A DNA stretch of 5,548 nucleotides from a virus (taxonomy: Duplodnaviria > Heunggongvirae > Uroviricota > Caudoviricetes). The first letter of the stretch is position 1. The number at the start of each line of letters is the position of its first letter. Location: IMG/VR virus record IMGVR_UViG_2529292977_000015; one strand, given 5' to 3'. Made by a program: the position numbers and the translations under genes. This document shows, in pieces, positions 1-5,493 of this stretch. A model generated the notes under the pieces. It had not been told where the DNA came from. It ran no database searches and saw only the letters and a program-made list of their open reading frames with translations.

Positions 1-176
1 GCTCAGGGCGATAAAACGCCAGGTGAATTTATTCAGGTTGTGCAAGTCCCGCCCTTGCGGGTGTGTGGTATGATTTCTCATAGCTACCTCGATACTGTTG
101 CTATCGTTGGTGGTCAGAGGCTGCGAAAGGACGGCAATCCTTTTCAGCCTCGTTTGCATTGAGTGATAAACACTCA

Positions 177-277: not shown

Positions 278-457
278 ATGGAAAGAGACCATATCAATAA
301 CAAATCACAGAAATTACAGGCTCGCGCCCCGCATGAAGTTGTTGAGGCTATGGAGCAAGTAAAAGAAACAGGCGAGAGCACTGCGCAATTTATCGTTACA
401 GCCATGCGAGGCGAGATCAAACGCCGCCAGCGCCGCAAGGCCAAAGAAGCGGAATAG
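278..457 (+). CDS. Small ribbon-helix-helix (CopG/Arc/Mnt-like) DNA-binding protein, 59 aa; absent from the supplied ORF track
   Basis: ATG 278 with AAGGGA 7 nt upstream, stop TAG 455-457. Translation MERDHINNKSQKLQARAPHEVVEAMEQVKETGESTAQFIVTAMRGEIKRRQRRKAKEAE shows a strand-helix-helix pattern and a basic tail. It lies directly downstream of the operator array and is followed by an intrinsic terminator. Confidence 0.5.
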   Translation: MERDHINNKSQKLQARAPHEVVEAMEQVKETGESTAQFIVTAMRGEIKRRQRRKAKEAE

Positions 458-577: not shown

Positions 578-1159
578 TCACTGAATGCGGTTGCCAAAGT
601 AAAACTCAGGCTGATATTCACGTATCAGCCTTTTTTCTTCTTCCTCCAGCTCACGCTTTTTGCGCTTACATGCCTGTAGCTCCCTCCCCTTCTGACTGGC
701 ACTTAACTGATATTGCTCTTTACGGCGAGAAAAGTCCTGTAATGCGCCCCACGGGATACCATAAGCCCCCGTTTTTCTGATTCCTGGTATCACATTCCTG
801 AATACCCAGTTACTGAAACGATGGGCGAACGTGCCAGGAGTAACAGCTTTCCGACTTCTGGCGATCAGCTTGTAAAAACCGGATTCAGAAATGAGGCTAT
901 GATTTGGATTTCCTCGAATACCGTAGCTTAAAGCGACGGTTTTCTTTTCATCCGCATCTAGTGCTTTTAGAGCATCGCGTGAGTTACTTATTTCCAGAGC
1001 AACACAAACATCCTTTGCAACAAACCACGGATCGCCGTTCAGATACACCACGCGAACGTTCACACTATCAAAGCGCAGAACGACCAGATCACGAAAATCA
1101 CAGAATTTTTTTACATGACGTGCGTCACCCTTGCCCGTCACGGCAATATTTTTATTCAT
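578..1159 (-). CDS. Bro-N domain protein (phage antirepressor-like), 193 aa
   Basis: N-terminal motif FRDLVVLRFDSVNVRVVYLNGDPWFVAKDVCVALEISNSRDALKALDADEKK matches the Bro-N signature. C-terminal tail is charged (KRKKRELEEEEKRLIRE). ATG 1159 with GAGGT upstream. Confidence 0.8.
   Translation of the reverse strand: MNKNIAVTGKGDARHVKKFCDFRDLVVLRFDSVNVRVVYLNGDPWFVAKDVCVALEISNSRDALKALDADEKKTVALSYGIRGNPNHSLISESGFYKLIARSRKAVTPGTFAHRFSNWVFRNVIPGIRKTGAYGIPWGALQDFSRRKEQYQLSASQKGRELQACKRKKRELEEEEKRLIREYQPEFYFGNRIQ
608..643 (+). terminator. Second canonical hairpin plus U-tract (terminator-like) lying inside the Bro-N coding 3' end
   Basis: Perfect 9-bp stem AGGCTGATA (608-616) pairing TATCAGCCT (623-631), 6-nt loop, followed by TTTTTCTTCTTCC. 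Confidence 0.45.
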
Positions 1160-1173
1160 TTCTTTTTTACCTC

Positions 1174-1205
1174 ACATACAAAAAACCCCGCATTGCACGC
1201 GGGGT
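1174..1205 (-). terminator. Rho-independent terminator downstream of the AlpA-like gene
   Basis: On the minus strand, stem CCCCGC/GCGGGG (plus 1186-1191 with 1199-1204), 7-nt loop, then TTTTTTGTATGTG. It sits 13 nt after the alpA stop. Confidence 0.6.
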
Positions 1206-1218
1206 ATGAAAGATATTA

Positions 1219-1422
1219 TTAGTGGGGATTGGCCTGTTCTCGTTGTTTATCTAACCATGCTTCTACATCTCTACGGTGCCAGGTATGTCGTCGTCCAATT
1301 CTGAACGGCTGAGGAAAACCATTATTCTCATCTTTCCAGAAATTGATGAATGCACTCATTGCTCCATATCGCAAGATTTTCATTACGTCTTTAGTAAATA
1401 AAATATCTTCATTGGTATTCAT
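1219..1422 (-). CDS. alpA: AlpA-family (excisionase/MerR-like HTH) DNA-binding regulator, 67 aa from the second ATG
   Basis: MNTNEDILFTKDVMKILRYGAMSAFINFWKDENNGFPQPFRIGRRHTWHRRDVEAWLDKQ fits the Phage_AlpA pattern (hydrophobic HTH, FPxP, conserved W, DVEAWL). ATG at 1422 is preceded by GAGGAGG with an 8-nt spacer. The ATG at 1443 listed in the ORF track lacks an SD and overlaps the int stop. Confidence 0.8.
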   Translation of the reverse strand: MNTNEDILFTKDVMKILRYGAMSAFINFWKDENNGFPQPFRIGRRHTWHRRDVEAWLDKQREQANPH

Positions 1423-1435
1423 TTGCTGAACCTCC

Positions 1436-2674
1436 TCAACCATTTACTACTCTTAAACCTTTCATACCACCGGATCTATTAATTACCCCTTTTCTCGCAT
1501 CATCAAAAAAATCACCGACCCATTGCATCATGATCTTACGCTGTTCTAGATAAATAGTTCTATTATAAATATCTCTTATTTTATCACCACTTTTATGCGC
1601 CAATGCAGCCTCGATTACATCGGGGTTAAATCCCTCCTCATTTAAAAGCGTACTCCACATTGAACGAAAACCATGTAACGTTACAATCCCTTTGAACTTA
1701 CTGGCAGCAATTGGGGTCTTGATAGTATTCCTCCCCATAGGCGCATCTTTTGTTCTGGAGGAAAAAAACACATAACGCCCTCTTTTTATTTCCTGCATTG
1801 TTCTGAGGATACTAATAGCCTGTGATGACAAGGGAACAACATGTTCACGATGGCATTTCATTTTATGCGCGGGGATAATCCACAAGCCAGAATCAAAATC
1901 AATCTCTGACCACTCTGCTTTAATCGCCTCACCTGGCCTGACCATTGTCAATATCTGGAATAAAAGTGCATTATGAGCTATTTGATAGGTATGAGGCACA
2001 CTATCCCACCAGCTCAGAAATTCAGGCAATCTTTCAACAGGTAGTGCTGCTAATGATTTATTTTTCTTTCCTGTGAATGCAGTCTTTATCTTAAGTAATG
2101 GATTTGCTTTCAATGCTCCACAATTTACAGCATAATTCATAATTTCATTTAATCTTGATATTAATTTTTTTTGCAACGCATTCTTATCGGATACGGCATC
2201 CAGAGCATTAATAGCTACTGGTGCTGTAATTTTTTCTATACTGTACTTACCAAAGAAAGGAACAAGATATTTGTATACTTCATATTCGATATTATACAGC
2301 GTAGGTTTCCGCAATTCAGATCCCTTTTTAAAAGCGAACCATGCATTAGCAACAGCTTCAAATGTCTGTAGATTTTTTAGTGACATCTCAATTTTACGAT
2401 TTTTCTTCTCCGTCACTGGATCAACTCCACGTGCAATCATTCGCCGAAGTTCATCACGTACTTCCCGTGCTTCCGCGAGTGAGAATTCAGGAAAACGTCC
2501 TATCGTGTATGTCTGCCGTTTCTTCGTTATCGGATGGCTATAACGGAAACGCCACACTTTCCCACCGGCTTTACTCACATTCAGCAATAAACCGAACCCA
2601 TCATAAACGGCATAGTCCTTTTCACGTGGTTTCATCCCCTTAACTTCAGTCACGGTTAATGGCTTTACCGACAT
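1436..2674 (-). CDS. int: Tyrosine-type site-specific integrase, P4/CP4-57-like, 412 aa
   Basis: N-terminal arm-binding-type region (GKVWRFRY...FPEFSLAEAREVRDELRRMIARGVDP). C-terminal catalytic region HGFRSMWST... and AHKSGDKIRDIYNRTIYLEQRKIMMQWVGDF closely resembles the P4 Int C-terminus. GAGGG SD 6 nt before ATG 2674. Confidence 0.93.
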   Translation of the reverse strand: MSVKPLTVTEVKGMKPREKDYAVYDGFGLLLNVSKAGGKVWRFRYSHPITKKRQTYTIGRFPEFSLAEAREVRDELRRMIARGVDPVTEKKNRKIEMSLKNLQTFEAVANAWFAFKKGSELRKPTLYNIEYEVYKYLVPFFGKYSIEKITAPVAINALDAVSDKNALQKKLISRLNEIMNYAVNCGALKANPLLKIKTAFTGKKNKSLAALPVERLPEFLSWWDSVPHTYQIAHNALLFQILTMVRPGEAIKAEWSEIDFDSGLWIIPAHKMKCHREHVVPLSSQAISILRTMQEIKRGRYVFFSSRTKDAPMGRNTIKTPIAASKFKGIVTLHGFRSMWSTLLNEEGFNPDVIEAALAHKSGDKIRDIYNRTIYLEQRKIMMQWVGDFFDDARKGVINRSGGMKGLRVVNG

Positions 2675-2835
2675 CTATCGCCCTCATTTTTTAGTCCGTC
2701 ATGTAGTCCATTCAAGCCAATAACAAGCGATAAACTAACTCATTATCAAGCAAAGAGAGGAAACTCATAAAATCACAACTCATTGAAAAGACTATGAAAC
2801 GACACCAGAACATACAAACAGGTAAGAAATGTACC

Positions 2836-3843
2836 CTACATCCAAAATGACGCAATCCGGGAGTTTCGTGGCGTTCCGGTGATACTGCCGTCCGCCGCCG
2901 CCCGTTCACCTTCACGAAGCCAGATCCCCTGGTTATTCAGTTCGCGTTTCTGCTCAGGGGCAATCAGCCCGCGACAATGCGGACACATCAGACGGGCAGC
3001 CTGACCGGCAGCCACAAAATCCGGGTTATTCCGGTATCCGGTCATGTTATCCATCACCGGCTGAAAATATTCCCCGCAGTGCGGACACGGCCAGTACCAC
3101 CGGCGGCGGTCTCCCCGGTTATACAGTGACAGGATCCCCGTTGTTGGCGGTGCCTCATGTGCGCCACCACAACGCCATTTGGTATCGGTGATATCCCGCC
3201 CCGGTGAACTCTCGACCAGGGTCATCCCCGAGGACATAAAGGTGGTGGTACGCTTTGAGGCCAGCGTGAAGGCATCCCCTTCCCCGTCCACATTTTCAGG
3301 GAAACGGTCATAATCCGTCAGCGCCACACGACGGTAATCCGAAGAGGAAAAGACGGTGATCGACGGCCAGCCAATCTTCAGGAAGGAGCCGTCAAGAAAC
3401 ATTTTATCGTGGACGTTGTTGTCATTACGGGAAGGACTGAGGCGCTTGCTGACCTCCGGACTGTGGCGAAACGTCCTGGAAAGACGCGTTCTGGAATGCT
3501 CACGCGCCTTCGTCTCAGTCATCTGCACCACCAGCATATCCGCCGGATCACAGATGATGCCGTACACAATCCAGCCATCAATCAGCCCTTCGGTTTTCCC
3601 GGTTCGCGCAGGTCCCACAAACACCACCGCGTCATATTCACGGGCTGATAATGTATTAATGGGGTCAATCATATAGGGCGTCAGCGATGACTCCCACGGA
3701 CCGGAAGTATTGGCTCCCCGTGGAACCCGCATATAACGCCTGATGGCTTCCGCTACTGGTAACCGGCTGGGTGGGCGAAACAGCGAGGCCACTTCGCGCC
3801 AGATATCGGATGCGCGGCTATGGCTCTCGTTCACCTGATTCAC
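2836..3843 (-). CDS. Terminase large subunit (lambda GpA family), N-terminal fragment of ~335 aa, truncated and probably a pseudogene
   Basis: Walker A VFVGPARTGKTEG and Cys motifs WPCPHCGEYFQ and MCPHCRG align with lambda gpA. Full-length gpA is about 640 aa. Similarity runs to ...RIASFW, then M and TAG at 2836-2838. GTG start at 3843 overlaps the Nu1 stop. Confidence 0.85.
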   Translation of the reverse strand: MNQVNESHSRASDIWREVASLFRPPSRLPVAEAIRRYMRVPRGANTSGPWESSLTPYMIDPINTLSAREYDAVVFVGPARTGKTEGLIDGWIVYGIICDPADMLVVQMTETKAREHSRTRLSRTFRHSPEVSKRLSPSRNDNNVHDKMFLDGSFLKIGWPSITVFSSSDYRRVALTDYDRFPENVDGEGDAFTLASKRTTTFMSSGMTLVESSPGRDITDTKWRCGGAHEAPPTTGILSLYNRGDRRRWYWPCPHCGEYFQPVMDNMTGYRNNPDFVAAGQAARLMCPHCRGLIAPEQKRELNNQGIWLREGERAAADGSITGTPRNSRIASFWM

Positions 3844-4316
3844 ATATCGGCCTCATCACAACAGTCAATGACTGCCTTTTCCAGTGTGTCGCGGATCTCA
3901 TCAACCACAATCTGTACTTCATTCAGTTGTGATGCAGTCCACCCCCTGTCCCTCTCCAGCCGGTCAGGCCAGGTTTCCAGTACCTGAACTATCGCTTTCA
4001 CCACGACAGAAAAGGACCGCCTGACATCACTGACTGGCACAAGCTGAACAGTTTCATGCTGAAATTTAAGACGCTCGCGCTCGGACTGATACCATGCCTT
4101 ACGAGCGTGAGGATCCATATCCTCATCTTCGGAAGATGGTGGTTTTTCCAGCAACGAAGTTATCAAATCCGTCAGGAGATACAGTTTTTTCTTTTCATTA
4201 CTGCCTGGTGCAAGAGGAACATCCGCCATTCTGGCGGCAACAGTCTGCCGGTGCAGACCTGAAAGGGCTGCCAGTTGATTAATATTTAACTTCATATTTT
4301 TCAGCTCGCCGTCCAT
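3840..4316 (-). CDS. Terminase small subunit, Nu1-like with N-terminal HTH, 158 aa
   Basis: N-terminus MKLNINQLAALSGLHRQTV parallels lambda Nu1 (MEVNKKQLADIFGASIRTIQ). GGAGG SD 7 nt before ATG 4316. Stop overlaps the terL start, in the lambda Nu1-A order. Confidence 0.85.
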   Translation of the reverse strand: MDGELKNMKLNINQLAALSGLHRQTVAARMADVPLAPGSNEKKKLYLLTDLITSLLEKPPSSEDEDMDPHARKAWYQSERERLKFQHETVQLVPVSDVRRSFSVVVKAIVQVLETWPDRLERDRGWTASQLNEVQIVVDEIRDTLEKAVIDCCDEADM

Positions 4317-4405
4317 TTACATCCCTCCACATAAACCGCAGAACAGAAGTGACTCTGTTTTTTTGTAAAGAAATGCCGCCATATAAAGATGTCGAACAAA
4401 AAACA

Positions 4406-4530
4406 ACCACAATCATCATCTTTTTAATACTAACAGCATTAAAAACAACAAGTTACCATCATGATGATGATGACGATAAAATCACAAAAATGCGCCTTTT
4501 TCCGCGCCCGCCCGCCCCGTGTTCAGGCCC
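4406..4530. other. Putative cos region: GC-rich cosN-like core (~4497-4534) and cosB-like inverted ATCATCATC/GATGATGAT repeats (4412-4420, 4463-4471)
   Basis: Minus-strand reading ACGGGGCGGGCGGGCGCGGAAAAAGG resembles the lambda cosN neighbourhood (ACGGGGCGGCGACCTCGCGGGTTTTCG). It lies about 200 nt upstream of the Nu1 start, as in lambda, between the lysis genes and the terminase. Confidence 0.4.
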
Positions 4531-4777
4531 ACCCCACCAGGAGGACCCGCAAAAATGATAATGGTTATCATTTGCAACAAAATCCAGTTTCTTCCACCAT
4601 CGCACCGGACTGGCGACTATGAGGGGACAACACCGCGCTCCGTTAACGCGGTAAACCCCGGTGTGTATCGTTTTTGATTATCCCCGCACACTCGCGCAGA
4701 GGATTCTCCCGGTCGGGCTGCGGTCTCTGTTAATGCAGGAATACGGCGACAATACCGCGCATGAATAATAAGGTCGC

Positions 4778-5002
4778 TCAACACACTGGCTGTAATGCAG
4801 CGGATACCATGCGGCATTTAGCGGCATTCATCGTACACTCAACGGTTAGCTCTTCATTCGTGGCATTCACCTGAAAGGTCCTGGAGTGTAATTGCGTACA
4901 TTTACCACTGAACGAACCTTCAACAAGAACACGACCACGCTGCAAAATACGGAACGGAATTGTTCCCTGAAAAGGCTTTACGGTTACCAATAATTTCTTC
5001 AT
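4778..5002 (-). CDS. Hypothetical protein, 74 aa from the first ATG, directly downstream of Rz
   Basis: ATG at 5002 with GGAGA SD, 23 nt after the Rz stop. MKKLLVTVKPFQGTIPFRILQRGRVLVEGSFSGKC... has ordinary complexity. The ORF track extends it to a TTG at 5020. No family recognised. Confidence 0.4.
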   Translation of the reverse strand: MKKLLVTVKPFQGTIPFRILQRGRVLVEGSFSGKCTQLHSRTFQVNATNEELTVECTMNAAKCRMVSAALQPVC

Positions 5003-5025: not shown

Positions 5026-5493
5026 CTAGTTAATACACTGAGTGCGGATATATTCCTGAAGCATTCTCAATGCTGCCTGGTCGCTGATGATTCCGTCTCT
5101 GATACCGAGAACGTTTCGTCCAGCAACCGGAGAGAGTTCGACGGCGGCATCATTGCCCACGCCGGAGGTGCCGGTGGCTTCACGCACGGTACCGGGGCAG
5201 GTGGCGTTGATCCGCAGGCGCTTACGACCAGCGGCAACATCAGCACGCAGAGTTTCATTTTCAGCTCTCGCATCGGCTAATTCCCTCGAGTATTTTGCAT
5301 CGAGCGCAGCAACATCACGCTGGCGCACCTGCATGTCAGTAATGGTGGCATTCGCCTGTTCCAGCTCTCTGGCTTTTTTATCGCGCTGCGCTTTGTAGGT
5401 GAGCGCGTTGTCACGGTAATGGTTTGTTGCCAGCCACAGCGCACCACAGCCAACCGCCATGACAATAATCACCACACACAGAACACGGTTCAT
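5026..5493 (-). CDS. Rz: Rz i-spanin (inner-membrane spanin subunit), 155 aa
   Basis: Near-colinear with lambda Rz: ...[70 protein letters not shown]... N-terminal hydrophobic segment present. Confidence 0.9.
5067..5273 (-). CDS. Rz1: Rz1 o-spanin (outer-membrane lipoprotein), embedded in the +1 frame within Rz
   Basis: [22 protein letters not shown]... has a lipobox ending in Cys and the proline-rich [15 protein letters not shown], matching lambda Rz1 (MLKLKMMLCVMMLPLVVVGC...CVKPPPPPAW). Lies wholly inside Rz. Confidence 0.85.

Follow-up and report, generated by a model that had tools for sequence, protein, structure and literature searches.

A stretch of 5,548 bp from a Caudoviricetes virus record (IMG/VR record IMGVR_UViG_2529292977_000015; the whole stretch is called the window here) contains, at positions 2675-2850, the junction between a truncated gene for the large terminase subunit (terL) of a lambdoid prophage and an integrase gene. 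We found that this junction is very probably the left attachment site (attL) of a 10.4-kb satellite of the phage-inducible chromosomal island (PICI) type, inserted by its own P4/IntA-family integrase into the GpA-type terL of its helper, in the configuration of the helper-embedded PICIs (HE-PICIs). The arrangement is of a known kind: a study from 2023 reported satellites that lie within late genes of prophages, among them terminase genes of a different family (Tommasini, Mageeney & Williams 2023, PMC10111431). The present element departs from that class in its integrase lineage, in the motif in the attachment arms and in a site outside the existing catalogue. The window matches chromosomes of Escherichia coli O157:H7 and other Shiga toxin-producing E. 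coli with 98-100% identity, and the remainder of the island beyond the window was read in these matching genomes.

The split terminase gene and its attachment site

The features at the junction are:

2836-3843, minus strand: N-terminal fragment of the helper terL, 335 codons, GpA family (Pfam GpA_ATPase over residues 45-308, E 6e-82)
2839-2845, no strand assigned: att core, attL copy (CATCCAA on the plus strand, TTGGATG on the coding strand)
2675-2838, minus strand: integrase-proximal attachment arm (P' arm), AT-rich, with GGACTA-N6-GGACTA at 2692-2709 and TTTATCGC at about 2727-2734
1436-2674, minus strand: tyrosine integrase (int), 412 aa, P4/CP4-57 family (Pfam Arm-DNA-bind_3, Phage_int_M, Phage_integrase)

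The initial annotation, made from the letters of the window, had described terL as a gpA-like gene cut to about half its length by the TAG at 2836-2838. This description holds: the fragment of 335 aa ends in ...IASFWM, immediately followed by that TAG, and compares with full alleles of 707 aa. RefSeq labels it 'phage terminase large subunit, incomplete, missing C-terminus'. The AT-rich DNA noticed beyond terL was found as well, the G+C content being 56-60% in terL (2801-3300), 38-43% at 2601-2900 and 30-43% in int. The integrase gene starts 161 nt from the terL stop, where 160 nt had been given, and reads away from the junction. Its placement in the P4 family is supported by the Arm-DNA-bind_3 domain set and by 33% identity to P4 Int and 38% to CP4-57 IntA.

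The other end of the element and a direct repeat, both of which had been proposed as checks, were located in matching annotated genomes. At a distance of 10.4 kb to the left of the terL fragment, and on the same strand, lies the remaining half of the gene, which RefSeq lists as a pseudogene ('terminase gpA endonuclease subunit, missing N-terminus'). Behind it come the genes for the portal, the protease-capsid protein and the tail. In E. coli O157 strain 272 (L001) this far junction carries the second copy of the 7-bp core CATCCAA (12410-12416), with scattered extra matches around it. The core takes in the codons Trp334-Met335 and the last base of the Phe333 codon and lies where the GpA nuclease domain begins. 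When the outer flanks are joined with a single core copy between them, the result is an uninterrupted ORF of 707 aa with GpA_ATPase (45-308) and GpA_nuclease (330-648), of which the window copy keeps the ATPase only. No sequence is missing from terL; its halves are free of further lesions, and the rejoined ORF is identical to intact alleles. There is no replacement sequence that would restore the target gene, and the terL stub meets its TAG two codons after Trp334. The rebuilt attachment site of the island (attP) includes GTACCCTACATCCAAGAAGAAGT, and the rebuilt terL site (attB) includes CCTCCATCCAAAATGACG.

Uninterrupted copies of terL are common. At least 80% of the 607-nt rebuilt junction is covered by 497 E. 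coli records, many of them 100% identical and in one piece. An intact terL was found within the Stx1a prophage of O157:H7 strain 8368 (L104), where TerS, portal protein, Rz and antirepressor have the same sequences as their counterparts beside the element of the window.

Since the terL halves rejoin into an intact ORF, the junction arose by insertion and not by deletion, as the initial annotation had favoured. The idea that the junction came from a deletion, or from a recombination event involving two prophages or a neighbouring P4-like element, is almost certainly wrong. It has in its favour that the lambdoid prophages of enterohaemorrhagic E. coli (EHEC) recombine often and commonly share near-identical late modules (PMC2669165), and that the window by itself shows one junction only. 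However, the C-terminal half of terL lies in the same orientation exactly past the 10.4-kb insert and is bounded by the same 7 bp, the gene is complete, and the exact rejoining already contradicts a loss of sequence. Moreover, the breakpoints are identical in diverged terL alleles and in other genera.

Several O111 genomes (e.g. O111:NM FWSEC0005, L087) have an empty-site terL that is frameshifted by a 44-bp tandem duplication, which represents a separate route to inactivating the same gene. We considered whether these 44 extra bases could be an excision scar; the duplication lies about 200 bp from the core and is unrelated to it.

The site specificity of the insertion was followed in 5,426 complete E. 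coli genomes, with an 801-nt query covering int plus terL for the junction. The integrase was present in 90 of them and the int-terL junction in 86, so nearly every copy of the integrase sits at this terL site. The occupied helpers include seven E. coli contexts with different early regions, namely O157 strain 272, O103:H2, O111:H21, the commensal fS58a, the urinary isolate EJN001, O121 RM8352 and O145:H28 16003. At five compared helper loci the integrases are 96-100% identical, and the terL alleles have diverged, the junction query being only 82-85% identical overall. In alignments of attL and of the right attachment site (attR), all five helper backbones change from host to island sequence exactly at CATCCA(A/G). 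Together with the intact rejoining and the 7-bp repeat, this upholds the proposed site-specific insertion into terL.

On the coding strand the switch corresponds to TT(T/C)-TGG-ATG, the Phe-Trp-Met of the conserved terminase motif S-F-W-M-E-G-P. Trp and Met have a single codon each, and therefore the six central bases of the core cannot vary without a change in the protein. In our own reading, these non-degenerate codons explain why the site is stable across diverged helpers and how one integrase can serve many of them.

Gene content of the island and known satellites

The other features of the window are:

1219-1422, minus strand: small helix-turn-helix (HTH) protein, 67 aa, directly after int, a candidate AlpA/Vis-like excisionase-regulator
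1185-1205, minus strand: intrinsic-terminator-like hairpin (9-bp stem with 6 G-C pairs, then a T run), closing the int-alpA unit
578-1159, minus strand: Bro-N protein of anti-repressor type, 'dynamic zone' (Pfam Bro-N, E 1e-18; phrog_2593 anti-repressor, E 1e-85)
278-457, plus strand: YlcI/YnfO-family small protein (RefSeq annotation; phrog_949)
1-81, minus strand: first codons of an Icd-like/repressor-family gene (L001 19878-20081, which is window -122 to 81; phrog_6196 'transcriptional repressor', E 2e-47)
3840-4316, minus strand: helper small terminase gene (terS), DUF1441 family (Pfam DUF1441, E 4e-48), directly upstream of terL
4355-4560, minus strand: helper cos-like region, with a cosN-like run GGGGCGGGCGGGCGCGG at 4503-4519, about 200 nt before the terS start codon
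between terS and Rz/Rz1: non-coding stretch
5026-5493, minus strand: Rz spanin gene, with an Rz1-type lipoprotein ORF embedded in another frame (5067-5273, minus strand)

All genes of the window except the YlcI/YnfO-family gene are on the minus strand. The small HTH protein matches phrog_66 ('excisionase and transcriptional regulator', E 9e-7), and its HTH_17 match is weak and below the Pfam cut-off.

Starting from int, the order of the island is int, HTH, Bro-N, YlcI/YnfO (opposite strand), Icd-like gene, three small ORFs and DUF4222. These are followed by a D5_N/DUF5906/Pox_D5 primase, a small ORF, a single-stranded DNA-binding protein (SSB), a further small ORF, a ClpP-protease/major-capsid fusion and a 93-aa ORF. 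The protease-capsid fusion is 52% identical to that of the helper. Terminase, portal, tail and lysis genes were not found in the 10.4 kb of the island annotated in O157, so the island lacks terL and, in the version carried by O157, terS as well. Judged by its gene content, it depends on functions of the helper. In the window and in L001, L002, L084-L086, L105 and L106, the int, alpA-like and primase genes are co-oriented with the late operon of the helper.

The helper region before terS can be aligned to lambda's left cohesive end, which is located 190 nt ahead of nu1. The 200 nt that precede terS in the helper recur twice within the island (L001 13100-13321 and 15680-15858); these copies are about 90% and about 71% identical to the helper region and lie 2.5 kb apart.

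Near the helper's own cos-like region, about 250 bp between terS and Rz (window about 4320-4780) are present in the window and not in strain 272; most O157 matches accordingly consist of two pieces and cover 93% of the window. A small plus-strand ORF is annotated there in an O103 genome and in strain 8368. The Rz/Rz1 pair (5026-5493) is an ordinary lambdoid lysis module.

Two identical palindromes ACTGGATTCCAGTA (177-190 and 245-258) and a third one, AAGTGGAATCCACTT (about 199-213), sit in the divergent region between the YlcI/YnfO-like gene (plus strand) and the Icd-like/repressor gene (minus strand). They look like operators of a regulatory switch of the island. The 93-aa ORF (L001 12787-13068, minus strand; phrog_1561, unknown function) adjoins attR in all loci examined; if an island has its own TerS, the ORF lies downstream of it. 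We considered the ORF as a decoy of the TerL N-terminus; it has no similarity to TerL, its only match being the PHROG of unknown function, and we regard it as a candidate packaging-interference factor.

Islands at the same terL site vary, as seen for L085 and L086 in comparison to L001. Some have their own DUF1441 TerS beside the cos-like copy, in some a RepA-type helicase replaces the primase, and one carries a SWIM zinc-finger gene. These differences in modules indicate rapid modular exchange.

The closest parallel in organisation is 11capE (Eco567.11capE of E. coli NRG857c; L003), the experimentally studied reference HE-PICI. For this element it was shown that the composite excises and replicates and that the satellite excises afterwards (PMC10111431). 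In both cases a late gene of the prophage is split, int, the alpA-like gene and the primase are co-oriented with the split gene, and a short att identity block comes without replacement of the target gene. The two islands also share the order int, AlpA-like gene, Bro-N zone, YlcI/YnfO on the opposite strand, Icd-like gene, DUF4222, primase, SSB and capsid gene. The alpA gene of 11capE occupies the same position as our small HTH gene, and the primases are 82% identical. As here, a cos-like region of the helper is copied in the island; in 11capE the copy that island and helper have in common comprises 258 bp (PMC10111431).

All four zones of Gram-negative PICIs are present, i.e. int plus the alpA-like gene, a Bro-N/regulatory zone, replication with the primase, and a late zone with a captured head gene. 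Like these PICIs (EcCICFT073, as given in PMC10111431), our island has about 10 kb and a backbone of int, an alpA-like gene and primase, and it carries a captured capsid gene, as they often do. Theirs is a cos-type packaging dependence on a lambdoid helper (PMC10111431), and in our island cos-like sites are recognised from their sequence. Classical PICIs occupy chromosomal sites apart from the helper and interact with it in trans only, whereas here terL of the helper is interrupted. Capsid-forming PICIs (cf-PICIs) have their own portal, head-tail connectors, TerS and TerL/HNH, unlike the present island with its ClpP-protease/major-capsid fusion alone.

Sp7 of the EHEC strain Sakai combines a P4-like Int, Xis and alpha-like primase with lambdoid head genes and is excised, replicated and packaged (PMC2669165). 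The joining of a P4-like Int, Xis and primase with lambdoid head genes in EHEC is common to both elements. However, Sp7 has portal, head and packaging functions of its own and is not described inside a gene of another prophage (PMC2669165), while our island has only the protease-capsid fusion and the cos-like sites.

The island shares several features with P4 and CP4-57: the Arm-DNA-bind_3 integrase, tandem attP arm repeats at about -75/+133, a D5/Pox_D5-type primase-helicase, and a Vis/AlpA-like gene after int. In contrast to these elements its helper is lambdoid and not P2-like, and its target is a phage gene and not tRNA-Leu or ssrA. One could regard it as an ordinary P4-type satellite or a CP4-57-type cryptic element which normally targets tRNA or tmRNA genes and has landed off-target in terL. 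The family of the integrase would fit, and off-target events are documented for HE-PICI integrases (PMC10111431). We nevertheless consider this highly improbable. As stated above, nearly all copies in E. coli are at terL, and integrase relatives with 68-87% identity use the same codon. The window contains no tRNA or tmRNA gene, and a tRNA/tmRNA remnant at the junction, which would have spoken for the usual target, was looked for and not found. Proteins of the Psu, Sid, Delta and Epsilon families were not recognised among the island proteins by annotation, Pfam or PHROGs, several small ORFs being of unknown function. Finally, the gene order and the primase are of the Gram-negative PICI type.

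Integrase lineage and attachment arms

The PICI-type satellite in terL differs from 11capE most clearly in its integrase. The two enzymes are only 24-25% identical, and ours lies outside the HE-PICI integrase clade. In a neighbour-joining tree of 11 sequences, which is small and not the full HE-PICI phylogeny of PMC10111431, the 11capE Int falls outside the group formed by the window integrase, its relatives, IntA and P4 Int.

The target differs as well. The Trp334-Met335 position of GpA-family terL is not among the 14 late-gene sites of the HE-PICI catalogue, and neither a GpA-named site nor an att alignment with a TTGGATG core occurs in the supplements of PMC10111431 (one of them represented here in part). 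Within the same material, the catalogued terminase sites comprise only Terminase_1_132/245/246, of the Terminase_1 family.

Relatives of the integrase show that the site is used beyond E. coli. Those with 87%, 76% (Salmonella), 73% and 68% (Rahnella) identity are all immediately preceded by a DUF1441 terS and a GpA_ATPase fragment that is 330-335 aa long. Beside the 87% and 73% relatives the fragments have 330-331 aa, and the translated Salmonella and Rahnella fragments end in ...IASFWM and a stop. A relative with 61% identity in Lelliottia amnigena (L111) follows a Nu1-type terS and a GpA fragment that is broken after ...KAAKNYRE, at about residue 180; as read from the sequence, this is a second site in a GpA-type terL. 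An E. coli relative with 60% identity (L091-L093) splits a late gene of the tail region that is co-oriented with it and has FII and a baseplate-V-like gene as neighbours; the core TCTCTTTCG is present at both junctions, and the rejoined frame is open. The 63% relative in Salmonella (L096) comes after a Peptidase_S78 protease/capsid gene and possibly sits in this gene.

The 60-63% relatives are all co-oriented with the late operon, and their target families are absent as sites from the 2023 catalogue, as far as the part of its supplements considered here extends. Relatives at 45-52% were found just after head genes, which is suggestive of late-gene embedding. In their wider flanks one locus continues into chromosomal genes and another is ambiguous, so that embedding is unproven for them. 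Among one-genome-per-species contigs the closest integrase relative has 40% identity, which is uninformative for the site, and in a phage collection 39%.

These loci suggest a second integrase lineage with a tropism for prophage late genes. We consider it rather likely that this lineage, which stands apart from the published HE-PICI clade and is more closely related to CP4-57 IntA and P4 Int, came to target prophage late genes independently, across the Enterobacterales. Its members with at least 68% identity would use the Trp-Met position of GpA terL and those with 60-63% other positions, and some carriers are Stx2-converting.

In the rebuilt attP, G[G/T]ACTA-N6-GGACTA occurs twice in the same orientation, with starts at -85 and +133 relative to the core centre, an arrangement that none of 2,000 shuffles reproduced. 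The +133 copy is the one at window 2692-2709, and the Salmonella and Rahnella relatives, as well as two that are more distant, have kept it in their attL arms. For HE-PICIs, a doubled TGTATTGC motif was reported 81+/-2 bp upstream and 132+/-2 bp downstream of the centre and called unique to them (PMC10111431). Our island has two co-oriented doubled motifs at nearly the same distances as 11capE (about -81/-85 and +132/+133), with GGACTA instead of TGTATTGC; the spacing is preserved, but not the motif itself. In P4, tandem arm repeats are annotated at about -75 and +133 from the core. Because the arm distances agree with both P4 and the published HE-PICIs, the layout of attP looks like a general P4-family architecture with lineage-specific arm sequences.

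Excision, packaging and Shiga toxin prophages

The initial annotation had expected that the insertion would inactivate packaging of the resident prophage. This would hold for the integrated state, in which terL is split and the island would keep the helper from making TerL. The inactivation is probably conditional, since excision should rebuild terL, and since an island that has cos-like sites and no terL of its own needs this gene.

In the induced helper, late transcripts would extend through terS and the remaining part of terL into int and the AlpA/Xis-like gene. In a simple consensus scan, neither terminator-like sites nor promoter-like sites on the minus strand were detected from the terL stop to int; the hairpin behind the alpA-like gene is the first that resembles a terminator. 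Int and the small HTH gene therefore seem to form one unit that is fed by upstream transcription from the helper. Int, together with the small HTH protein, could then excise the island, whereby terL would be rebuilt. The restored helper terminase may package island DNA via the cos-like sites, in addition to helper DNA, and the divergent protease-capsid fusion of the island may alter the capsids. As packaging could then not begin before the satellite is free, the satellite would be favoured.

Several points weigh against this reading of a helper-embedded, excisable satellite. Restoration of terL by excision, like all other steps after insertion, is something we infer from the HE-PICI model. The doubled TGTATTGC motif has no match in the rebuilt attP at up to one mismatch, and with both this motif and the HE-PICI integrase clade absent, the behaviour of 11capE is not simply transferable. 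The AlpA assignment of the small HTH protein has weak to moderate support, K-12 AlpA giving no BLASTP alignment with it. The stretches before terS are read as cos-like from their position and their resemblance to lambda, and the scans for promoters and terminators are simple consensus matches and thus weak evidence. Furthermore, a few copies of int are truncated (H178-H180), which implies that some islands are decaying.

The truncated copies, together with the reliance on a model for excision of the present element, fit the alternative that the insertion was site-specific once and is now an immobile scar. Here a decaying remnant would keep terL permanently inactive and help to trap a defective prophage in the chromosome. 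Defects are notorious among O157 prophages (PMC2669165), one of the small island ORFs is annotated as frameshifted, and a tail gene of the helper is annotated as partial. Such a fate is possible for individual copies. As a general explanation it is unlikely, as int is an intact ORF conserved at 96-100% across lineages, both copies of the att core and of the doubled arm motif are undamaged, and the lesion-free halves of terL rejoin to sequences identical to intact alleles. In addition, the occupation of many unrelated helpers implies recent mobility.

An excisable satellite in terL would resemble other elements that control the integrity of a gene. Examples are the skin element in sigK and the comK prophage of Listeria, each of which disrupts a gene when integrated and makes it whole again by excising at a defined stage. 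In our case, by contrast, the disrupted gene is one of the helper phage, and it is presumably the satellite and not the cell that benefits. The concept of 'regulated gene integrity' or active lysogeny is discussed in PMC10111431.

The helpers include Shiga toxin (Stx) phages. In the O145:H28 strain 16003 (L106) the island splits terL of an Stx2-converting prophage, with stxA2/stxB2 located about 7 kb upstream of the split gene in the same late operon. The target allele of terL is carried by Stx1 and Stx2 prophages. In the papers on Stx phages, on the O145:H28 strain set and on nested EHEC prophages, as far as our partial coverage of this literature extends, the island is not described.

The satellite may therefore gate the packaging, and hence the spread, of Shiga toxin phages. 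Production of infectious Stx phage, not necessarily expression of the toxin, may depend on excision of the satellite. The arrangement also matters for genome annotation. Such prophages are scored as 'defective, terminase pseudogene', and satellite finders overlook the island if they leave out regions flanked by phage genes. Given a second integrase lineage, embedding in late genes would be a recurring strategy of satellites beyond one integrase clade. Convergent targeting of late genes, along with gating of Stx-phage packaging by a satellite, is a plausible wider implication of our findings.

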